Assembly (NCBI RefSeq): GCF_965219815.1
Contig: NZ_OZ244791.1
Span: forward strand, 34,007 to 98,006
Direction of reading: 5' to 3'
Source: Candidatus Poriferisocius sp.
Lineage (GTDB): Bacteria > Actinomycetota > Acidimicrobiia > Acidimicrobiales > Bin134
Length of the DNA stretch: 64,000 nucleotides
How positions within the stretch are numbered: the first letter of the stretch is position 1; every line of letters starts with the position of its first letter. The translations under genes and the position numbers were made by a program. Below, one piece after another: positions 1,930-13,242 of the stretch. The notes below the pieces were generated by a model that saw only the letters and a list, made by a program, of their open reading frames with translations, had not been told where the DNA came from and ran no database searches.

Positions 1930-3462
1930 TTACTCCGGCGCGCCCTGTCTCATCCATTCCGACACATCCACGCCGACTCGCGACGCTGTCGAAGCGAAGC
2001 CGTGGACCGCATGAGATGCCACTTCGGCTCTCAGCCGCGTGATCGCCCGGTAGCTGACCTTGGTGCTCTCAAACCGCCAGTTCGGTGCTTCCCCTCCCGC
2101 CACCACCGACCCTTCCCCGTTTGGCTCGAACTCCGGCATGGCCAGTTTGTGCGGCTGCTGTTCGAACTTGACGGCCACAAACTGGCCATCTTCGTCCTGA
2201 AACATGGCGTCGGGTGTCTCATTCTCCGCGCTCTTGCGGAGCAGCATCATGGGGAAGGCCCTTTTTTCTTGGATGCGCACGCTGTCGCAAAGGGGTTGAA
2301 TGCAAAGCCAGTAGTTATCAGACGGGTCTTTGACCACCACTCCGAGTTCAAGTCTGGGGGGTTCAGAGCCAAACCCAGTCGAACACATGAGTGACGCGAG
2401 GGCATTGTCAGATTGTCGGTCATCGCCGAACGCTCCAACCAGGGTCTTCATATTTTTGGCACTGAGTTTGAGTGTCCCAACCTTCAACAGACCTGAAGCC
2501 ACTGCCTCTTGGGCAATCGCTGTGTCCTCTCCATTCTTGAGGTCGCTGGGGCAGTCTTCGGTGCTTCTCAGCAGCTCAGCCAATGCCTCAGGCGCAGAAA
2601 TCAGCCCTGCCTCTGCCAGGAAATCCCGCACTGCTTGGCCATCCCACTCTTCGTCTATTCGGTTGGCCATGAGCGTCTGCTTGAACTCGCTCGCCAGCAG
2701 CTCGAGGAACTGGGTGCCTGCGTCATCGGGCTCGGGCAGCAGGGCCCGGTGGACAAGCGCTCCTGCGTCCAATGTCGAATCGAAGGTCGCGAGCACCCGC
2801 GGAGCCGACTCGCGCAGCACGTTGATTCCTCGGAACGCGAATCTCGGCATCAGGCCCTTGAACACGAGTTCAAGGTCATCACGGACCATCTGCGGAAGGT
2901 CGGAATACCTTCTGGCGGTTCGACTGTCCTCCCCGCCAGTGAGCGGTATGCCCGGTTTCCCGAAGACCAGCACAATCGCATCATCTCGCCTCAGCACGAA
3001 ATCATGGATTTCTTCGAAGTCCGCATCATCCTTGAGGCGCGTGGCGACGTCCGTCAGGCTATGGGCGCCGGTGAATATGGCAACAACTACAAGACGGCCC
3101 TTGTTTTCCTCAGCGATGGCCTTGATCGCATTGACAGTTGCCGAGTGATCGCCGAACAACAGCCAGTCAAGTATCAGGAGATCGGCGATTTGAGCGCCGC
3201 GAAGCGCCAGGTTGACGAAATCAACGTGTTCTTCCAGTTCAAACACGCTGCAAACGATGTTCTCAGCAAGAAAGGCGCTTACCAAGCTCGATGGACGTAC
3301 AGGTGTTTCGTCCTCATCTGGCGGAGGGGTGAGCTCCGAATCTGGCTCACTGGGCAAGTCCTGCGCAATGTTGGAATCAAGAGCTTCGAGCTCCCTGAAA
3401 TCAGACTCAACACGATCGTCGATCACCAGGGCTGTTCGAAAGTAGTCGCTGATGGCAGTCAT
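1930..3462 (-). CDS. receiver (REC)-domain protein with a ~330-aa C-terminal domain of unknown function; third gene of the dcm operon
   Basis: 510 aa. D15-D16, D99 (LILDW), T131 (IFTG) and K169-P170 (FGKPG) reproduce the CheY-type receiver signature. An acidic/Pro-rich insert follows strand 1. Its ATG overlaps the upstream stop (ATGA, 3459-3462). Confidence 0.75.
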   Translation of the reverse strand: MTAISDYFRTALVIDDRVESDFRELEALDSNIAQDLPSEPDSELTPPPDEDETPVRPSSLVSAFLAENIVCSVFELEEHVDFVNLALRGAQIADLLILDWLLFGDHSATVNAIKAIAEENKGRLVVVAIFTGAHSLTDVATRLKDDADFEEIHDFVLRRDDAIVLVFGKPGIPLTGGEDSRTARRYSDLPQMVRDDLELVFKGLMPRFAFRGINVLRESAPRVLATFDSTLDAGALVHRALLPEPDDAGTQFLELLASEFKQTLMANRIDEEWDGQAVRDFLAEAGLISAPEALAELLRSTEDCPSDLKNGEDTAIAQEAVASGLLKVGTLKLSAKNMKTLVGAFGDDRQSDNALASLMCSTGFGSEPPRLELGVVVKDPSDNYWLCIQPLCDSVRIQEKRAFPMMLLRKSAENETPDAMFQDEDGQFVAVKFEQQPHKLAMPEFEPNGEGSVVAGGEAPNWRFESTKVSYRAITRLRAEVASHAVHGFASTASRVGVDVSEWMRQGAPE

Positions 3463-6347
3463 GGCTTCTTCCGCTGTGGGCGGATAATGAACTCAGCTCC
3501 ATCAGAACACCGTCCCAGGCTTATGTTCCATCCCGCCCGTTCGAGAACCTGGCTGGCGATGGCAAGGCCCAGACCACTGCCGCCCGGCTTGGTGGTGAAG
3601 CCGAAATCAAATACGCGTTCAGCGATATCATCGGCGATTCCCGGGCCACTGTCCTTGTAGACAAGCGCGTCTCCCTTTGTGCTTAATTCGATGCTGCGCG
3701 ATGGGCGTGGCTCGCTCTGCTCTATCCAATACAGGCTGTTGTCGACGAGATTGATGAACACGGGATAGAAGGTCGAGGTGTAGCCCTCGAGGGCGAATGC
3801 TTGGAATTCCCGGCTCGGGCGGATCTCGACTCCGACATGACGCAGGCGCTCGTAGAACAGCTCACCGAGAAACCGCGAGATGTCACTTCCCTTTATGGCG
3901 GTCTTCTTGCGCCTCAGCCGCCGCTGCATGGGAGTCAGCATTGAAAGGTAGCTGTCGAGGTGGTCGAAGTCCCGTCTCAGGTCTTCGTAGAGGCCGACGA
4001 GCTGGGGATTCTTCTTGGCCCACGTTCCCACCCTTCTCACATCGCTTCGAATGCTGTTCACGGTGGCGCGGAATTCGTGGTCAACCACGGCCAGCGCCAT
4101 TCCCAATTGGACGAGTTCTAGTTGCGCGTCGGCCTGGGCGCGGAGCTCGACGATCTCGGCGTCGGCTGCGGCCGCGAAATCGTCGGGAGTCGGCGCTTCA
4201 GCGGTGAACACAAGCCCGTTCGCCTGCACGAGATTGGAGACTCGGGCCAGCTTTCGGACTGTGTTCGCTGCCAGCGATTCCAGCGCTTGCTCGAAGTCAG
4301 CCTGTTCTTGGATCCATCCGCTGCTTTCCGACGTGTTCGGTGCCGCGAAGGCCGCCATCTCGGTGTCGAATTCCTGGCGAAGCCCGGTGAGCGTGTTCTG
4401 CACGGCCTCGCTCAAGCCAGTCAGGGCGAGGCTAGCCTCGTCATAGGCACCGGCAAACTCTTCCCGGGCCGCTGCGATTCGCTCCTCGACAAACGCCCGC
4501 CGCTCCTTTTCGTCTGCCTCCTGCGCAGCCAGCCGGGCCTCGACCGCAGCAGCCAGTGAGTCAACGGCGTCGAGTGCCGGTCGAACGTAGGAACTCTCCA
4601 CATCGGATAGGCCTCGTTCTACGTGACGCATGTCCTGGCGCATTGGGCCGGTTGGCGCGAAGCCTTCGGGCTCGTCGAACTCCAACGGCTCAAGGAGCTC
4701 ACGCAGGTCTCGCCTGGCCTCTGCAACGCTGATCGCCGCCGGCTGGAGGCGGTCAATGTCATCAAGGCGCTCGCTGAGATCCTGCACTATCTCCGACGCC
4801 TGTTCCTGAAAGTCCGTCTCATCGAGGAACTGAACTGCGGTCGAGAGCTGGGCTTGCAGGTGCTTTCGTCCCGCCGCGGCCTGTTTGTCACGCTGTTTGC
4901 GGAGGCTGTCCTCTCGCCTCAGCCGCTCTCGGCCCTTCTCATAGGCCTGATTCTGTGGAGCGTCGCCGCGAAAGAACCTGGCGGCCAACTCCACGAACAG
5001 GTTTACCAATAGCCGCTGGAAGTCGGTGTAGGCCCGGCCTCGGGTAAAGCCCTCTCGTCCTGCTTTTTCCTGCAAATCGGGGTTCTGGTCGCTGGAAAGG
5101 CGAACGGCGCCGAACATGCGCCGATAGGAGAAGTAGTAGTAGCTCGCTCCAAGGGTGCGGCGCTCTTCTATTGCCAGGTAGTCAAAGTCGGGGCGCCCAT
5201 AGGGCTGCACTCGGATTCCGTCCATGTACACGTACAGGCCCCCGAGCTTTCGAAGCTTCCGGCTCATCTCTGCGTACTCTTCGGGGTCGAGCCGGGACTC
5301 GCTCGCCAGTCCCTGCACGTAGCCCAGCTCAAATGAGAACGGCCCGCACCGCGGCTGCATTGAGTCAGGGCACTTGATCACGAAGTCTTCAAGGGTCTCG
5401 TCGTAGATCCGTATCGACCCGGTGAAATCCCCGTTGTCGTCGAACTGGCCGGCTATCTCGTGATCCGCATGGTTGAAGTCCGCGGCATCGAAGAAGTCTT
5501 CAGACTCGAGCAGATTCTGGTCGTCGCCTCCGCCGCGATGATCCACAAAACTGATGGAGAAGTCGGGCTTCGCCGATTTTGGGAGCCAGGCATCGGTGAA
5601 TCCGTGCAGTGTGTGGTCGAGCAGCGGGGCTTCCTTGGGGTTGGGGTTCTCAATCTCCGCGGGAAGGACGTCGGAAACCGGCGCGATGATGAACTGTGTG
5701 CCCGACCCGTCGATCGGCACGAGGTCGGGGATGTCTTCGAACGGGTCGGACGGCATGGCGTCCAAGTCGGCGAGAATCTGATCCAGCCGGGACGACCACT
5801 GCGGCGTGCTGTCCAATGCGCGAAAGCCGGCCACCGCCTCCTCCAGCGGCGCCTTCAAACGGGCGATGTCTTCACCGGTGAGCTCATCGGAGTCGAGCTC
5901 GGACAATCCCACGGGAACATCGTCCAAGTCGATTCGCGGGAGCTCGAACATCTTCCAGCTCACCAGCGCGGCAATCGCTGGGTGTCCCTTGCGCTTGGAT
6001 ACCACCAGCACCTGGCTGCCAAGAGCGCCGATGGCGAACCGGCCGATGCCCTTCTCGCCGAGTTGCACCCGCTCGCGCATCCCCTTTGGTTTGGGTACGG
6101 GGGTTCGGTCCAACTTCGACTCGGTTGCGATGGTCAGCCAAGCCTGCTCAAAGGTCTCGCGGTCCATCCCCACACCGTCATCGCTCACAACCAGCAGGTT
6201 GAGTGGGCGGAAGAAATCCGCGCGGGCTTTCGTGGCGTATGCGTCGTGGGAGTTCTTGAACAGCTCGCTCAGCGCGGTGGGAAGGTTTGCGATCTGCTGC
6301 CTTCCGAGCATGTCTACGGCCCGAGCCCTCGCCCGGAAACCGGTCAC
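3459..6347 (-). CDS. 962-aa protein: N-terminal MORC/HSP90-type GHKL ATPase module, central coiled-coil region, C-terminal histidine-kinase core
   Basis: N-terminal motifs: E28-x3-N32-x2-D35-A (SELFKNSHDA), DDGVGM 56-61, GEKGIG 97-102. C-terminal motifs: H-box VVDH757EFR (codon 4077-4079), N-box NLVDN870S, G1 DSGPG 899-903, F-box FDFGF, G2 GGSGLGLA 922-929. GTG start overlaps the dcm stop (GTGA, 6344-6347). Confidence 0.8.
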   Translation of the reverse strand: MTGFRARARAVDMLGRQQIANLPTALSELFKNSHDAYATKARADFFRPLNLLVVSDDGVGMDRETFEQAWLTIATESKLDRTPVPKPKGMRERVQLGEKGIGRFAIGALGSQVLVVSKRKGHPAIAALVSWKMFELPRIDLDDVPVGLSELDSDELTGEDIARLKAPLEEAVAGFRALDSTPQWSSRLDQILADLDAMPSDPFEDIPDLVPIDGSGTQFIIAPVSDVLPAEIENPNPKEAPLLDHTLHGFTDAWLPKSAKPDFSISFVDHRGGGDDQNLLESEDFFDAADFNHADHEIAGQFDDNGDFTGSIRIYDETLEDFVIKCPDSMQPRCGPFSFELGYVQGLASESRLDPEEYAEMSRKLRKLGGLYVYMDGIRVQPYGRPDFDYLAIEERRTLGASYYYFSYRRMFGAVRLSSDQNPDLQEKAGREGFTRGRAYTDFQRLLVNLFVELAARFFRGDAPQNQAYEKGRERLRREDSLRKQRDKQAAAGRKHLQAQLSTAVQFLDETDFQEQASEIVQDLSERLDDIDRLQPAAISVAEARRDLRELLEPLEFDEPEGFAPTGPMRQDMRHVERGLSDVESSYVRPALDAVDSLAAAVEARLAAQEADEKERRAFVEERIAAAREEFAGAYDEASLALTGLSEAVQNTLTGLRQEFDTEMAAFAAPNTSESSGWIQEQADFEQALESLAANTVRKLARVSNLVQANGLVFTAEAPTPDDFAAAADAEIVELRAQADAQLELVQLGMALAVVDHEFRATVNSIRSDVRRVGTWAKKNPQLVGLYEDLRRDFDHLDSYLSMLTPMQRRLRRKKTAIKGSDISRFLGELFYERLRHVGVEIRPSREFQAFALEGYTSTFYPVFINLVDNSLYWIEQSEPRPSRSIELSTKGDALVYKDSGPGIADDIAERVFDFGFTTKPGGSGLGLAIASQVLERAGWNISLGRCSDGAEFIIRPQRKKP

Positions 6348-7477
6348 GCCGCCGACCTCGCTGCCTGCTCGATATCAGCGGCGACCTTCCCGCTCTGATC
6401 TTGGATGCTCATGCTGCCAATTCGGCGCATCTCACCCACATGGTCCATGAGGTGGCGTCCGAAGTGCTCGGCCAGAAGAACCGGGACGGCGTTGCCGATC
6501 TGCTTGCCCTGGGAGGTGAGGCTGCCGGTGAACCGAAAGGAGTTCGGAAAGGTCTGGAGTCGGGCCGCTTCTCGCGCGCTGAGAGCCCGATCCTAGCTGG
6601 GGTGGCCGAAGCGCCCGTTGCTGTAGCTGAGGCACTTGGTGGTCAGTGTTGGCGCCGGACTGTCCCACCTCAACCTGCCGTACACGTCGGTGTGACCGTC
6701 AAAGCCTCCCTGGTGGCAGTCGGGCCAAAGACGGCGCGGCCAATCCCGGCGATCACCGCCCTCCGGCGTTGCCCGAATCCGCTTCAAGTTCAAGTCCGAG
6801 AGCATCATGGCCCTGTGGTTGCTGATGTCGGAATCCTCCTGCCCGGCTTCGATCGGGGGAAGAGAGCCGATCCAGTCTCGAATCGTCGAATGCGGCTCGC
6901 CGGCTTCGAGGCCATGGGTCGGAAGCGGCAGCTTGATGGGCCCGAGCCGGCTTGCCACCAGCACGAGACGGCGCCGCGTCTGCGGGATCCCGTAGTCGGC
7001 ACTCGAGATGATGTCGACGGACACGTCGTGTGTTTTGGACACCTCGTCCACGAACTCGGCCAAGGGGCCCCGCGAGGTGGACAGACGCTGCATCCCTGGG
7101 ACGTTCTCCACAAAGATCAGCTCTGGATTTGAGGCCTTCACGAACCGGAGAAACTCAAGCAGTAGGAACGACCGTTTGTCCAAGGCAGTCGGCCCGTGCC
7201 GGTGGCCTGAGAAAGGCTGACAAGGAGCGCACCCGGCAAAGAGCCTGATCGCCTCGCCGCGGGGCGGCAGCACCTCTTCCACCTCGTCAACCGAGAGGCT
7301 GAGGATGTCGCGCTCCAAAAACGTTGTCTCCGGGAAATTCAGCCGATATGTCGCCGCCGCATCCGAATCCCAATCGATGGCAAGCACAGGTTCGATGCCA
7401 GCATCGGCAAACCCCCGAGTCGAACCGCCGCATCCCGAGAAGAAGTCCGCCAGCACCACTCCTGCACTCATGTTCAT
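6344..7477 (-). pseudogene. DNA (cytosine-5)-methyltransferase interrupted by a single in-frame TAG (codon 295, nt 6593-6595)
   Basis: Upstream part carries motif I FFSGCGG, IV GCAPCQPFS, VI ENVPGM and VIII QTRRRLVLVA. The same frame after the TAG reads DRALSAREAARLQTFPNSFRF...QIGNAVPVLLAE (motifs IX and X) and runs to TGA at 6344-6346. Confidence 0.85.
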
Positions 7478-7965: not shown

Positions 7966-9171
7966 GTGAGCCAGTTGGGAAAGGCGCTGGCGCGTGCTCG
8001 CACGAGCGCTCGCTACTCACAAGATGATGTGGGTGCCGCCCTAGGCATCAACCGGGCAATGGTGTCGTACTGGGAAGCCGGCACCCGAACTCCGAATGAT
8101 CGACAGTTGGGCGCAATGGCCCGGCTCTACGGCATCGAGCTGATCGATCTCGTCGAAGGCCGCGACGTCGACTCCGACGCCGACGACTTGGCGAGCATGC
8201 TTTTGCGTGCCAATGACGGCGTCGACCCTGGAGCCACTCCAGGCATCCGCGAGTTCGTCCAGTTCCTTGACCGCTACGCCGAGCTAGCTCGAATCGTGGA
8301 CGAACCCATCCGGGGCCTCTCCCAAAGCCCGTTCGTATTCCGGCAGAGGTTCTCTCAGAAGGACGACATTCGCCGCAAGGCAGAAGAGGTGCGCGATTAC
8401 CTCCGTCTCGGCTCGGCCCCGATTTCCGACCTAGACCCGGTTTGCGAGGCACTCGGTATCACCATCTACCGGGCGCGTCTCGGACCGGACCTGCGAACCT
8501 CTCCGTCAGGGGCGTTTCTCAAGCACCCTGAGGTGGGATTCTCGATCTTGGTCAATCTCGACATGACGCCGGGCCGGCGCCGGTTCACCGCCGCTCACGA
8601 ACTGGCGCATGCCCTGTTCCACAGTGACGAGACCAACCAGGTGCTCTCGCACGGCCGGGGTCCGCGCGAGATTTTCGCCGACGCGTTCGCTGGTGAGTTC
8701 CTCATGCCGAGTGAGGGTGTTCGACGCTTCGCCGAGGAGGTCGGTCTGCCACCTCGCATCAAGGACCCGGTCGACATCGTCCACATACAGAGGTACTTCA
8801 AGGTGTCGTGGCCCACGGCGCTCGTCCGGTTGCGCCAGATGAACGCCATTACACAAGTCACCTATACCGACCTCAGGGCCTCGGTTCGTCCGGTGTCGCT
8901 GGCTCGAGCCCTTGGATATGCCATCCATCCCGAAGAAGACATCCAGGATCCGGAGCTTTGGCGGATACGACGGTTCCCCCGGTCGTTTCTGCGGATGCTG
9001 CGTCACGCGGTAGTAACGGAGGTCATGTCGCCCCCCAGCGCCGCCGCCTTCGCCGGATTGGCCCTGCCTGACATTGTGCAGGTCCTCGGCAGTCCCCTCG
9101 GCGACGCTGAGCAAGAGTCACCGCATCTAGAGACTGAGTTCAATGAGTTCGAGGTCACGGGAGTTGTCTGA
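7966..9171 (+). CDS. XRE-family helix-turn-helix domain fused to an ImmA/IrrE-type zinc metallopeptidase domain
   Basis: N-terminus SQDDVGAALGINRAMVSYWEAGTRTPN is a typical HTH_XRE. HEXXH motif HELAHALFH with downstream FAGEFLMP is typical of COG2856/ImmA. Confidence 0.8.
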   Translation: MSQLGKALARARTSARYSQDDVGAALGINRAMVSYWEAGTRTPNDRQLGAMARLYGIELIDLVEGRDVDSDADDLASMLLRANDGVDPGATPGIREFVQFLDRYAELARIVDEPIRGLSQSPFVFRQRFSQKDDIRRKAEEVRDYLRLGSAPISDLDPVCEALGITIYRARLGPDLRTSPSGAFLKHPEVGFSILVNLDMTPGRRRFTAAHELAHALFHSDETNQVLSHGRGPREIFADAFAGEFLMPSEGVRRFAEEVGLPPRIKDPVDIVHIQRYFKVSWPTALVRLRQMNAITQVTYTDLRASVRPVSLARALGYAIHPEEDIQDPELWRIRRFPRSFLRMLRHAVVTEVMSPPSAAAFAGLALPDIVQVLGSPLGDAEQESPHLETEFNEFEVTGVV

Positions 9172-9269
9172 GGGTTCTCACGTCATCGACACCGTGGTAA
9201 TTGGGACTCCGGCCAGCCGTTCACCTGAGTCCCGCGCGACTGGAGCTGAATTGCTCAGGTTGATCCCGA

Positions 9270-10190
9270 CTATTGGGTATTCGCCAGGGGGGCGGTGAAG
9301 GTGGTGGTCTCGGTGCCGTTGACGAACACCGTGTAGGTCTGGCCGGGGGTGAGGGCGTCGCCGAAGCGGATTGCCTCTTCAACCACGACTCTTTCTGCGT
9401 CGCAGTCGATGGCCCATGGGGTGGGCGGCGGGACGGTGAGGGTGATGGTGGCGTAGATGTCTGAGCCGATGATCTCGAACGACTGGCTGCCCCGGCGAAC
9501 GCAGTTCTCGACGGTGGACTGGTAGTGGTCCACCAGAATGATGACCTCGGGGTGATACTCCACTACTTCGGCCCCGATCACCTCGACCTCTTCTTCGACC
9601 CACTGGTGGGAGTTCTCCTCGTTCCACTCGCCGGTGGGGTCGGGCGGAGGCTGAACGATCACCAGCACCATGTCGACTCGGGTGGGGTTGCCCCGGGTGA
9701 TCACGTCGTAGGCGGTGTCGTTGATGAAGGCCAGGCGGCCGTCGGACTCGGTTATCCGGGCTTGGATGGAATAGGTGTTGCGAGGATTGATGTCGTCCTC
9801 GTTGTAGTGCACTTCGAACTCGATGGGAACTTGGCCCGGATTGGTGATGACCTGCTCGGCAATCAGCTCGGAGGCCACATCCATGAGAGACGTGTCTCGA
9901 AGCTGCACGGTGACAACCGCACCGGGAGATAGCGCAATCCGCTCTCGGTAGGTGACCGTGCCCATGACCGAGGCATTGGCATCGGGGTCAACGGTGGACG
10001 TTGCTACCGCGGTCGCTGATGTCGTCGTTTCGGGAGACGGTGGGGTGGTGCTAGTGGCCGTTGCATCCGGTTCAGCCCCCACCACGGCGATTTGCTCCTC
10101 ATCTGCGCCGTCACCGCAGCCGGCGGCAATCAGAAGAGCGAGTGCCAGACCGATGGTGGCGATCAATTGGGTCGTGCGCTTGGCCTTCAT
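9270..10190 (-). CDS. YbaY-like lipoprotein with extra C-terminal domain
   Basis: Signal peptide plus lipobox LLIAAGCG. The segment GTVTYRERIALSPGAVVTVQLRDTSLMDVAS...RLAFINDTAYDV aligns by eye with E. coli YbaY. Confidence 0.65.
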   Translation of the reverse strand: MKAKRTTQLIATIGLALALLIAAGCGDGADEEQIAVVGAEPDATATSTTPPSPETTTSATAVATSTVDPDANASVMGTVTYRERIALSPGAVVTVQLRDTSLMDVASELIAEQVITNPGQVPIEFEVHYNEDDINPRNTYSIQARITESDGRLAFINDTAYDVITRGNPTRVDMVLVIVQPPPDPTGEWNEENSHQWVEEEVEVIGAEVVEYHPEVIILVDHYQSTVENCVRRGSQSFEIIGSDIYATITLTVPPPTPWAIDCDAERVVVEEAIRFGDALTPGQTYTVFVNGTETTTFTAPLANTQ

Positions 10191-10314
10191 CGGCGAACCT
10201 CGCTCATGGAGAAGTCTACGGCTGGGTCGACGCCTCTTGGTTCGACCTCAATAGATGAGACGAGGCAGCCGCCTGCTCAGGTTCCCGCCTTAGCGCGACT
10301 GGGGGTGGAGACGA

Positions 10315-10734
10315 TCATGTTGTGGCCAATTGGACACGGCCGGTCTGTTGCGCCCACGCCCGGAGCTTTGCGTCCTTGGTAAGGAGTTCGTGCTGGTGGA
10401 GGATTGCTGTGGCGACAATGAGCTGGTCGGCGGGGTCTTGGTGGAATCCCTCGTCCACCAGGCTGGTGGCGTCCACCCAGAGTGATCCGGTGACGGGTAT
10501 CTCGCTCAGGCCCTGCCTCAGGACACCGGCACGCAATTCCTTGATGCCTGGGAGGGGTGGCAGATTTCCTCGTGGCTTTCTGCGCTTGACCTCCAGTTCC
10601 CAGAAAGTGGCGGCGGAGACGGCTGCCTCACCTCGGCTGATGGCTCGATCAATGCCATCAAGGATGGTCTGAGGCAGCTTGGCGGTGTCGCCGGTCACGG
10701 CCCACACCAAGACATGAGTGTCCAGCAAGATCAT
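10315..10734 (-). CDS. vapC: PIN-domain toxin (VapC family)
   Basis: MILLDTHVLVW start and the acidic residues typical of PIN. Sits downstream of a small antitoxin gene. Confidence 0.8.
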   Translation of the reverse strand: MILLDTHVLVWAVTGDTAKLPQTILDGIDRAISRGEAAVSAATFWELEVKRRKPRGNLPPLPGIKELRAGVLRQGLSEIPVTGSLWVDATSLVDEGFHQDPADQLIVATAILHQHELLTKDAKLRAWAQQTGRVQLATT

Positions 10735-10761
10735 GCAGTTCCTTCGGTGCAGGTGGGGGCG

Positions 10762-11028
10762 TCAGCCCCAGTCGTCGGCCATGCCGGTCACTGCCTCCGG
10801 GTCTATGACCGTTTCGCTAGGGTCGTCCCAGAAACCGGCGAACTCCGGAAAAAAGCCGCAAATGCCCGTGCCTTCGCCATGTGCCGGAACAAGACGGGAC
10901 ACTGGTGTGCCTCGTTTGGTGATGACAATCGGAATGCCGGTTTCGTTGACCTCATCCATGAGCTTCAGGCACTTGGCCTTGAACTCTCCGGCGGAAATAG
11001 TTCTTGGCTGCTGAGTCTCTATTGCCAC
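10762..11028 (-). CDS. Phd/YefM-family antitoxin
   Basis: 88 aa. ISAGEFKAKCLKLMDEVNETGIPIVITKRGTPVSRLVP is the classic Phd/YefM N-terminal fold signature. Confidence 0.8.
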   Translation of the reverse strand: MAIETQQPRTISAGEFKAKCLKLMDEVNETGIPIVITKRGTPVSRLVPAHGEGTGICGFFPEFAGFWDDPSETVIDPEAVTGMADDWG

Positions 11029-11079
11029 GAACAGACCCTATCACCAGATGACCATGTTTGTGACCATGAATCTGTGGCC

Positions 11080-11850
11080 TTATCCGGTTTCAGGGCGGCG
11101 GGGGAGGAAGGCGCTGGTTCGCTGGATGTACTCGTCGTAGCCGGGGCGCTTTCGCTTCATGCGGTGCTCCACCATGGGCACGCCGGACACTTTGACCAGA
11201 ATCCAGGTGATGAGCGCCGGGGCGATCAGTCCCACGATTCCGATTGGTGTGGAGGCGGCTACCAAACCGATGCCCCACCAGGCGGTGGCGTCGCCGAAGT
11301 AGTTGGGATGACGGCTATAGCGCCACAGACCACGATCCATCAGCTTCCCCGCGTTGGCCGGATCTGCCTTGAACCGGGCGAGCTGCCAGTCGCCTGTGGC
11401 CTCGAAGCCGAAGCCGACCAGGAACACCACCGCGCCGATCACCCACAGTGCACTCCATCCCCGGTCGGCGTCGCTGATGCCGATCATGAGGGGAAGCGAC
11501 ATCACCCACATAGCCGCGGCTTGCAACCCGAACACCCGCACCAGGCTGGTGAGCCAGAAGCGATCTCCGGCTCTTCGGCGCATCGACTGGTAGCGGAAGT
11601 CCTCTTCTGCCCCGATGTTGCGAAACGCCAAATGGATGGCCAATCGCAATCCCCATGTGGTGGCCATGGCCACCAACAGGGCAGCCCGCACGCCGTGTCC
11701 GTCGGTGACCAGCAGGCTCACCCAGGCCGCCACCACAAAGCCGAAGCCCCACAAGATGTCGACGATGCCAGCGTCTCGAATCGCCACGCTGATGGCCCAC
11801 ACCGCCAGCATCATCCCGGCGATCACCGCCGCTACCACCCATAAGACCAT
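11080..11850 (-). CDS. DUF1295 / steroid-5-alpha-reductase-like polytopic membrane protein
   Basis: Multiple hydrophobic helices. WRYSRHPNYFGD motif is characteristic of the family. Confidence 0.7.
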   Translation of the reverse strand: MVLWVVAAVIAGMMLAVWAISVAIRDAGIVDILWGFGFVVAAWVSLLVTDGHGVRAALLVAMATTWGLRLAIHLAFRNIGAEEDFRYQSMRRRAGDRFWLTSLVRVFGLQAAAMWVMSLPLMIGISDADRGWSALWVIGAVVFLVGFGFEATGDWQLARFKADPANAGKLMDRGLWRYSRHPNYFGDATAWWGIGLVAASTPIGIVGLIAPALITWILVKVSGVPMVEHRMKRKRPGYDEYIQRTSAFLPRRPETG

Positions 11851-11952
11851 CTGCGATCAGCGTAGCGAGCGGTTGGCAGTGCTGGTATTTGGCCGATCAG
11901 CAAACACAGACAGGGTGATTGGAAGTTCGCCCGCCGCGTGTTCCTCGGCAGC

Positions 11953-13242
11953 TCAGCTCAGGAGCTCGATGCAGTGTTGGGCTCGGGTGGCGACTAGATC
12001 AACGAGGCGTCTGGGGAGGTCGGTGGGAAGTACTTGGATGGTGTTGTCGTGGGCAGCTTGGTCGAAGGCGGCGGGGAGGTTGCGGGCGAGATTGAGGATG
12101 CGGGTGATGGCCTCATTTCGATCCAACCCCAATTCATCGGCGGTTTTGTCCCACGCGCCGGGGCGATCGGTCCGTCGCAGCCGGTAGTCGCCCCCAATCT
12201 TCATGGCGAGGCTGATCTTGTGCCCCTTGCTCTTGTCGTAGGGCAGAAATGAGGCCACATCGTAGAGGGGCGCCAGGCGGGCCTGGGTGCCGGCGAGCAA
12301 CAGGCTGTAGTTCTTGGCGTGGGCATCGCTACCAGCGATCAGCCAGTTGAAGGCCAGCGCATCGAAGAACCCCCACAGATCGTTGGCTGCTCCACCTCCC
12401 GTCACCGCTGATCGCAGCAATGCGGCTACCTGTCCAGGTGAGGGACCACCGTCGGCCTGGTACTTCCGGGTGGGATGCAGCGACAGGGCTTGGCACAGGT
12501 CCTCGTGGTGAACACGGGTCAGGGTGCCCTGGCGTGAAACCCGGTCGAAGCGCTCCACAATGATGGCCGTCTGATCTTCAAACACGCCCATCTGCGGGCG
12601 GGCGGCACGCAGACCAGAGTTGGCCGCGGCCACCAGGCAGAGGTGCTCGTTGACGTCCAACCAGTCAAAGTCGGGAACGGTGGGCTTGAGGATATGCGTG
12701 GTCGGCACGTTGCCAGAGGGCTCACCCCACCCTTGTGCCGAGAAATGCAAAGCGGTCTTGGCCTGGGCGCCACCGAGGCTGAATTGACCGGTCCTTGCCG
12801 GCCCCAGCCAGGCGGTCGCATCGGCCTTCAGCGCTCGCAGACGAGCTGCGATATCTGCCTCGCTCATCTCGGATACATCGCCGCCTCGTCCTAGGAGATC
12901 GTCCACCGCCTCCGCTGGGCAGAACTGAACCGCGCCCGGACAGTCATATCCAACCTTGGTTCCCAACAGCGGAAACGGGTTGGCGATGGATACGCCGAAA
13001 TCGCGGCCCCAGCGGGCAAGCACATCGGCATTGTCGGGGAGCAGGCCCCAAAGCCATGGACTAACCCGGTGATCACTGTGCTCTTCGAGTTCTACGGGCA
13101 TTGACACCGACAATGGAGTCGCTGTCGGATTTGTGCGGTAGTCCTTGTGGTAGCGCAGACGCAGGCGGTTGTCGGTGAGGCGGCGAAGCTCACCCGCCAA
13201 TCGCCCGTTGATGATGACGGCGAGCATCGTCAATCGGCCCAA
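11953..13242 (-). CDS. hipA: HipA-family serine/threonine kinase toxin
   Basis: N-terminal HipA coupling region (GRLAGELRR...). Catalytic-loop-like GSDAHAKNYSLLL. Overlaps the upstream hipB-like gene. Confidence 0.85.
   Translation of the reverse strand: MGRLTMLAVIINGRLAGELRRLTDNRLRLRYHKDYRTNPTATPLSVSMPVELEEHSDHRVSPWLWGLLPDNADVLARWGRDFGVSIANPFPLLGTKVGYDCPGAVQFCPAEAVDDLLGRGGDVSEMSEADIAARLRALKADATAWLGPARTGQFSLGGAQAKTALHFSAQGWGEPSGNVPTTHILKPTVPDFDWLDVNEHLCLVAAANSGLRAARPQMGVFEDQTAIIVERFDRVSRQGTLTRVHHEDLCQALSLHPTRKYQADGGPSPGQVAALLRSAVTGGGAANDLWGFFDALAFNWLIAGSDAHAKNYSLLLAGTQARLAPLYDVASFLPYDKSKGHKISLAMKIGGDYRLRRTDRPGAWDKTADELGLDRNEAITRILNLARNLPAAFDQAAHDNTIQVLPTDLPRRLVDLVATRAQHCIELLS

Follow-up and report, generated by a model that had tools for sequence, protein, structure and literature searches.

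A widespread orphan C-terminal domain on a divergent receiver protein encoded with a MORC-type histidine kinase and a C5 DNA methylase

What does a response-regulator-like protein do when its output domain resembles nothing in the databases? The question is raised by a receiver protein encoded on a 64,000-nucleotide stretch of the genome of Candidatus Poriferisocius sp. (contig NZ_OZ244791.1, positions 34,007 to 98,006; hereafter the window). A reading made from the sequence alone had described an N-terminal receiver domain with CheY-like spacing and two insertions, followed by some 330 residues without a recognizable motif, and had proposed the protein as the likely effector of its operon. 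We find that it is the last product of a three-gene cassette, preceded by a C5 DNA methylase and a histidine kinase with a MORC-type ATPase head. Its assignment to the published PF19192/PF19191 family and its membership in this cassette are practically certain. The receiver family and its context are already known, and the point of interest is the widespread orphan C-terminal domain. We tentatively favor a reading in which the receiver protein acts, under control of its phosphorylation, as the effector of a methylase-dependent restriction or abortive-infection module.

Direct translation of the open reading frame shows D15, D16, D99, T131, K169, and P170 at the positions given by the sequence-only reading, and alignment of a profile of 80 relatives with CheY places D99 on D57 and T131 on T87. 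Both insertions are likewise real. The D15-D99 spacing is 84 residues, compared with 44 in CheY (D13-D57), and is thus about 40 residues longer, while the T131-K169 spacing is 38 residues, compared with 22 (T87-K109), or about 16 longer. Residues 35-59, within the first insertion, read DLPSEPDSELTPPPDEDETPVRPSS. Conservation here and below was assessed in a wide family alignment of 134 members sharing less than 60% identity with each other. D99 and K169 are retained in 100% of members, D15 in 99%, D16 in 96%, and T131 in 89%, which answers the earlier concern that the receiver residues might not be conserved in homologs. P170 is kept in the close clade and falls below 80% in the wider family. 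A similar picture was obtained for insertion 1, whose acidic, proline-rich composition is kept in the close clade, with P40, L44, P47, and P54 invariant, and whose length and sequence vary across the wider family (56% gaps). The receiver spacing pattern is real and not a product of chance.

The only Pfam match of the protein is to PF19192 (Response_reg_2), covering residues 7-161 (E = 3.6e-18; 66.8 bits against a cut-off of 27). PF00072 gave no match to the receiver protein even at E <= 10, and matched three of the 80 relatives weakly (E >= 0.011). In the AlphaFold2 (AF2) model of the full-length protein, with a predicted local distance difference test (pLDDT) score of 73, strands and helices alternate as in receivers, and D99 follows a strand formed by residues 95-98. 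Insertion 1 is modeled as a low-confidence loop (pLDDT below 50 at residues 22-29, 35-41, and 46-48), and insertion 2 as a helix (136-147) and an extra beta hairpin (150-159) leading into strand 162-168. Foldseek searches with the receiver model returned weak receiver matches, including the N-terminal domain of RssB (probability 0.96, template modeling (TM) score 0.56, E = 0.06).

The receiver family cannot be counted as a novelty, being already in Pfam: PF19192 and its partner PF19191 were defined in 2021 by Bellieny-Rabelo, Pretorius, and Moleleki (Genome Biol Evol, PMC8011034). That purely computational paper reports the conserved DD, D, T, and K residues and enlarged loops between the alpha1/beta1 and alpha5/beta5 elements of the receiver. 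It also finds the receiver gene linked with a soluble GHKL kinase in 91.6%, and C5 methylases, Vsr, and other restriction-modification (R-M) genes enriched nearby. It defines the receiver part, and its sections on domain architecture, R-M association, and discussion are silent on the C-terminal domain of about 330 residues. We found no later paper in the literature that characterizes the family.

The description of this C-terminal domain as unrecognizable held against every collection searched. Residues ~176-510 have no match in Pfam, NCBIfam, PADLOC, PHROGs, or PDB sequences. Searches with the full protein, the C-terminal domain, and 25-80 diverse relatives found nothing beyond PF19192 in the first four, and narrow and broad C-terminal profiles found nothing meaningful among PDB sequences. 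Foldseek searches with the C-terminal model gave no match at E <= 0.001 against the PDB or viral models. The sequence-only reading had allowed that a well-known DNA-binding output might emerge; no helix-turn-helix (HTH) or winged-helix family was matched in 80 members even at E <= 10, and no DNA-binding fold was matched in the PDB. Candidate PD-(D/E)xK, HNH, HEPN (Rx4-6H), and ADP-ribosyltransferase (R-S-ExE) motifs were judged by eye and set aside, their candidate residues not being the conserved ones.

The domain is nevertheless widespread. A profile of residues 176-510, searched against 1.84 billion cluster representatives (clusters at 50% identity), retrieved 1,459 relatives at E <= 0.001, of which 518 pass E <= 1e-30. 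Among the 150 matches listed, almost all lie in proteins of 500-600 residues and begin near residue 200, and PF19192 is also present in 80 of 80 diverse members carrying the domain. The C-terminal domain is therefore a fixed part of the family rather than a clade-specific addition.

Conservation of C-terminal residues, a check that the sequence-only reading had proposed, revealed a set of invariant polar positions. Nearly invariant residues comprise G203, R217, D232, H238, R239, and P245 in the helical part and L371, G374, C387, Q389, C392, D393, R396, F403, F445, F464, R495, G497, E502, and R505 in the rest, while residues 271-345 are variable. A confident AF2 model of the domain, built from a 25-sequence alignment (pLDDT 88.3; predicted TM score 0.80), begins with a helical bundle (186-360), continues with a beta-rich subdomain (~375-477) and then a long helix, and ends in a less defined tail. 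From their pattern of conservation, R217, D232, H238, R239, C387, Q389, C392, D393, R396, and E502 look like a functional site, and the conserved tail may be a docking motif. The domain is acidic, with an isoelectric point of 4.8 here and a family median of 5.3; across the family, the beta subdomain is close to neutral.

The other half of the proposed phosphorelay is the partner kinase. Its residues 1-460 comprise a very conserved MORC-type GHKL ATPase head, resembling the BbrUII/HgiDII restriction enzymes (NF050001, residues 10-129), and a second module. Conservation is poor in residues 460-740, where a single weak coiled-coil match was obtained, and the C-terminus (742-955) resembles ThkA, ZraS, and other true histidine kinases, with an invariant H757-E-F in the HEF_HK H-box. 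A phosphorelay from the kinase to the receiver protein is probable. The second module (residues 200-460) has its own invariants (D295-H296, D303, K364, R379-Q-P-Y-G, E394, and E427-K-A-G-R-E-G-F) and matches no assigned family; it is probably an S5-like transducer, with a catalytic role as the alternative.

To place the protein in its genomic context, we sampled one genome per species, which gave 162 loci; 80 were kept and, with 4 fetched earlier, make up a set of 84. In tblastn searches all three proteins were found in most of these loci, and the kinase adjoins the receiver gene in 83 of them. The order methylase, kinase, receiver protein holds in nearly all complete loci. Cassettes occur in Acidimicrobiia, Chloroflexota, Acidobacteriota, Bacteroidota, Proteobacteria, Methanosarcinales, Halobacteriota, and one Asgard archaeon, and the closest homologs (up to 90% identity) come from metagenome-assembled genomes (MAGs) of Acidimicrobiia. 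The cassette moves as a unit, being inserted in unrelated contexts (loci L001 and L004, for example), and is seldom found on viral contigs (2 loci) or plasmids (1 match). Within the fetched flanks of up to 8 kb, Vsr is the sole recurrent neighbor, present in roughly 50 of the 84 loci, most often directly downstream of the receiver gene; it is rare in the closest clade. Neither another conserved effector gene nor a recurrent stand-alone receiver was found among the neighbors. Because the cassette holds no other conserved candidate, its anatomy fits the earlier proposal that the receiver protein is the likely effector of the operon.

Complete archaeal cassettes were seen in loci L022, L025, L026, L029, L030, and L039, from Halobacteriota, Methanosarcina, Methanoperedens, and an Asgard (Promethearchaeum) bin, which indicates inter-domain transfer. 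A single Acidimicrobiia MAG carries two complete cassettes (L007 and L008; JAJEJB010000025 and JAJEJB010000007), each with a receiver protein ~57% identical to that of the window.

Evolutionary distances were also compared across 68 cassettes, drawn from loci L004-L084. Those of the kinase closely track those of the receiver protein (r = 0.91, and 0.76 among distant pairs), whereas methylase distances among distant pairs are almost uncorrelated with those of the kinase (r = 0.16) and the receiver protein (r = 0.10), which implies that the methylase partner has been swapped repeatedly. No part of either the kinase or the receiver protein co-varies with the target-recognition region of the methylase: after correction for the methylase core, partial correlations are negative or zero. 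Kinase and receiver protein thus form a co-evolving unit serving C5 methylases of many lineages, and this counts against a classical restriction enzyme that needs a specificity matched to its methylase.

In the window, 4-base start/stop overlaps join all three genes, the methylase stop codon overlapping the GTG start of the kinase and the kinase stop codon overlapping the ATG of the receiver gene. The methylase itself is interrupted by a TAG at codon 295 (6593-6595, minus strand), just ahead of motifs IX and X. In five of five relatives checked this codon is CAG (Gln), so that CCAGG there reads CTAGG here, a change expected from deamination of the inner 5-methylcytosine. The kinase and receiver genes are intact, with ratios of nonsynonymous to synonymous substitution rates (dN/dS) of 0.08-0.24 relative to relatives. 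An intact pair beside a broken methylase means either that the mutation occurred recently or that losing the methylase does not make the pair harmful. Recognition supplied by the methylase, as in Type III systems, fits both this arrangement and the co-variation data, since loss of the methylase would also remove targeting. No nuclease domain was found in the cassette. A Dcm-type (CCWGG) specificity was considered and not retained, CCWGG not being depleted in the window (observed/expected ratio 0.95). As a separate observation, CTGCAG (the PstI site) is strongly under-represented in the 64 kb, with 5 sites per strand against ~23 expected (ratio 0.22), which may reflect another restriction system in the present genome. 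Promoter and terminator scans of the operon were uninformative.

Taken together, these data can be arranged into a working model. The MORC-type ATPase module of the kinase would monitor DNA, and the methylase would probably act with the kinase and confer sequence recognition, much like the Mod subunit of a Type III system. Upon a "non-self" or unmethylated signal, the kinase core would autophosphorylate H757, and the phosphoryl group would then pass to D99 of the receiver protein. Phosphorylation of the divergent receiver would release or activate the C-terminal domain, the presumed output of the cassette and perhaps an enzyme or toxin of an undescribed family, which would act on nucleic acid or another essential target and stop the invader or the infected cell. 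A more ambitious version, which we regard as doubtful, is that the domain is an undescribed effector fold with a two-lobed site built from R217, D232, and H238 together with C387, Q389, C392, and D393 and switched on by aspartate phosphorylation. The cassette would then represent a new class of restriction or abortive infection, in which the methylase recognizes the target, a MORC-type ATPase reads the DNA, and killing is licensed by a His-Asp phosphorelay instead of direct contact between subunits.

Several points weigh against the protein being a phosphorylation-gated effector. No catalytic motif or known effector fold can be assigned to the C-terminal domain, and this is where the earlier effector proposal falls short of a demonstration. 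The acidity of the domain is unusual for an enzyme acting on nucleic acid. The receiver is too divergent for a PF00072 match, and its model finds receivers only weakly. About 600 uncharacterized kinase residues could hold the real effector. The methylase of this copy is a pseudogene, and the cassette may therefore be inactive in the present genome. Finally, we found no experimental test of any family member in the literature.

The same evidence can be read in other ways. A non-catalytic C-terminal domain could, once phosphorylated, dock onto the paraMORC-type kinase or the methylase and switch on an activity located elsewhere, either a nuclease hidden in residues 200-460 or 460-740 of the kinase or a neighboring Vsr. 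Such an adaptor would explain why the C-terminal tail is highly conserved yet poorly packed in the monomer model, a combination that suggests docking, and would agree with the acidic character of the domain and with the many invariant polar residues in kinase residues 200-460 (D295-H296, D303, E394, and E427-K428). Other paraMORC families, moreover, carry their own C-terminal nuclease domains (PMC2292703). We nonetheless consider it unlikely: the middle region of the kinase matches no nuclease family, no Vsr gene lies within the 64-kb window or near most of the closest relatives, and the invariant Cys, His, Asp, and Arg residues, distributed across both subdomains, are more site-like than interface-like. 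The frequent presence of Vsr, mostly directly downstream of the receiver gene, suits a different proposal, to which we assign a low probability, namely that the cassette has no role in defense and is a housekeeping accessory of the methylase. Here a MutL-like ATPase and a phosphorelay would sense damage at 5-methylcytosine (T:G mismatches) or the methylation state, and would either steer very-short-patch repair or fine-tune methylation. In E. coli, Vsr is stimulated by MutL, and the kinase-receiver pair always occurs with C5 methylases, of many lineages and with no target-recognition co-variation. The integrity of the kinase and receiver genes beside a broken methylase also favors a repair role, because it shows that the pair is not lethal without methylation, and the relationship between GHKL ATPases and MutL is established (PMC2292703). 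However, Vsr accompanies C5 methylases in general, and ~40% of the cassettes lack it. The sporadic, horizontally transferred distribution, the toxin-antitoxin genes around the present cassette, and the resemblance of the ATPase head to true restriction enzymes all point away from repair, and ~1,470 residues of signaling machinery would be large for a repair accessory.

The remaining two proposals concern the chemistry of the C-terminal domain. A specific form of the effector reading would make the beta-rich subdomain a diverged MazF/PemK-type endoribonuclease and the whole protein a phosphorylation-controlled mRNA interferase. MazF/PemK toxins are indeed the sole recurrent structural matches of this subdomain, both in the PDB (probability 0.6-0.87 at target-normalized TM scores of 0.5-0.59; recurrent matches overall at E 0.13-1.6 and TM 0.36-0.59, none significant) and among viral models (probability 0.44-0.72). 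Yet all Foldseek E-values exceed 0.04, the similarities are short, local, and on non-equivalent strands, and no counterpart of the catalytic Arg/Thr of MazF can be placed by alignment. At the sequence level, three profile comparisons, including one with a PemK alignment from a dedicated homolog search, gave hhalign probabilities of 0.1-0.4%, no better than control regions, and none of the 80 members matched PF02452 even at E <= 10. We therefore regard a MazF-type identity as improbable. Least probable of all, in our assessment, is an ordinary response regulator with a novel DNA-binding output that regulates expression of the methylase or of other genes. Response regulators are mostly transcription factors, and R-M systems often carry controller proteins, but the domain is acidic, has invariant Cys, His, and Asp residues, and yielded neither HTH or winged-helix families nor a DNA-binding fold in the searches described above.

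If the phosphorylation-gated effector reading is correct, thousands of bacterial and archaeal genomes would hold a methylase-linked immune module in which two-component signaling gates an effector of unknown chemistry. Solving the C-terminal domain would reveal what a widespread orphan domain does (1,459 clusters at 50% identity) and would show how MORC-type ATPases pass on signals sensed on DNA. ATPases of this type also act in eukaryotic epigenetic silencing. The present locus is itself of modest value, being one more family member with a broken methylase.

The surroundings of the receiver gene bear traces of its history. G+C content is 0.578 at 2001-4000 (the receiver gene plus the last part of the kinase gene), compared with 0.62-0.68 in most of the window, and is consistent with horizontally acquired DNA. 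Relative to the closest relative, locus L001, nucleotide identity is 98-100% over the kinase gene and the first half of the receiver gene and falls abruptly to 78-83% in the 3' half of the latter (synonymous divergence, dS, 0.008 vs 0.3-0.5). The mosaic segment spans ~1862-2680, corresponding to receiver-protein codons ~260-510 and 68 bases past the stop. Homology to L001 ends at 1862, beyond which the downstream genes differ (an alpha/beta hydrolase here, an arginase in L001). The step in identity suggests that recombination took place within the C-terminal domain, at the island's edge. On the other side of the cassette, a run of toxin-antitoxin and defense-type genes at 7966-13242 is common to the window and L001; its members are listed with the other features in the table.

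Table. Features of the cassette and its surroundings, in window coordinates
Feature	Position	Strand	Basis and details
Receiver-protein gene (response-regulator-like)	1930..3462	-	510 aa, ATG start; Response_reg_2 receiver and uncharacterized C-terminal domain
Receiver domain, ~residues 7-170	2953..3444	-	PF19192, CheY alignment, conservation, weak fold matches; D15, D16, D99, W100, T131, K169
Insertion 1, residues 35-59	3286..3360	-	acidic/proline-rich; between strand 1 and helix 1
Insertion 2, ~residues 141-160	2983..3042	-	end of helix 4 and extra beta hairpin, ahead of strand 5 and K169
C-terminal helical subdomain, residues 186-360	2383..2907	-	AF2 model, conservation; invariant G203, R217, D232, H238, R239, P245
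C-terminal beta-rich subdomain and long helix, residues 361-496	1975..2382	-	invariant L371, G374, F403, F445, F464, R495
Signature motif W385-L-C387-I-Q389-P-L-C392-D393-S-V-R396	2275..2310	-	family consensus [YF][WLF][LVI]C[IVL]QPxCD
Conserved C-terminal tail	1948..1980	-	R495, G497, S501, E502, W503, R505; low confidence in monomer model
Partner kinase gene	3459..6347	-	962 aa, GTG start; PF13589 (HATPase_c_3), PF19191 (HEF_HK), PF02518 (HATPase_c)
C5 DNA methylase gene	6344..7477	-	PF00145; 377 codons in relatives; in-frame TAG 6593-6595
HTH and peptidase M78 protein (RmrA/ImmA-like)	7966-9171		
PIN toxin	10315-10734		
Phd antitoxin	10762-11028		
HipA-like kinase	11953-13242		

Compared with known systems, the protein shares with CheY-like receivers (PF00072) the acid pocket, acceptor Asp, Thr, and Lys in the same order, has a model of the flavodoxin-like (beta-alpha) type that matches receivers weakly, and differs by its insertions of ~40 and ~16 residues. 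It is a member of the PF19192/PF19191 pair by its Pfam match, its DD/D/T/K residues, and its enlarged loops, and has the same adjoining soluble kinase (HATPase_c_3, HEF_HK, and HATPase_c) and upstream C5 methylase; the present copy differs in its Acidimicrobiia host, the absence of a nearby Vsr, and its broken methylase. The beta-rich subdomain may resemble MazF/PemK/Kid toxins, its model suggesting a small beta-barrel followed by a C-terminal helix, but it is embedded in a larger two-lobed domain and has no sequence or profile similarity or alignable catalytic residues. As in classical Type II R-M systems a methylase is present, here in a cassette with no recognizable restriction endonuclease. 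The MORC-type head of the kinase, and a cassette with a cytosine methylase and often Vsr, recall the paraMORC/MORC GHKL ATPases (Iyer, Abhiman, and Aravind 2008, PMC2292703) and BbrUII/HgiDII. In those families the ATPase comes with helicases or with nucleases fused to it, whereas here the protein continues into a histidine-kinase core and has a receiver protein as its partner.

The closest parallel in logic that we can draw is with Detocs, in which a His-Asp phosphorelay has been shown experimentally to gate a toxic effector in phage defense, the His and Asp being required and the isolated effector toxic (Rousset et al., bioRxiv 10.1101/2023.01.24.525353). It is the sole defensive two-component system with experimental proof that we found in the literature. 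The present cassette has no DtcB-type buffer receiver, its C-terminal domain matches none of the PNP, REase, TOPRIM, or transmembrane effector families (Pfam), no PADLOC model matches the receiver protein, and a methylase belongs to the cassette, whereas Detocs has none. Its sensor is a MORC-type ATPase rather than TPR repeats, and the receiver and H-box come from different Pfam families. Lacking a buffer receiver and known effectors and having an added methylase, the cassette is therefore not a member of Detocs. What the two have in common is a soluble sensor kinase and a receiver fused to a non-DNA-binding effector, putative in our case, within a mobile, defense-type operon.

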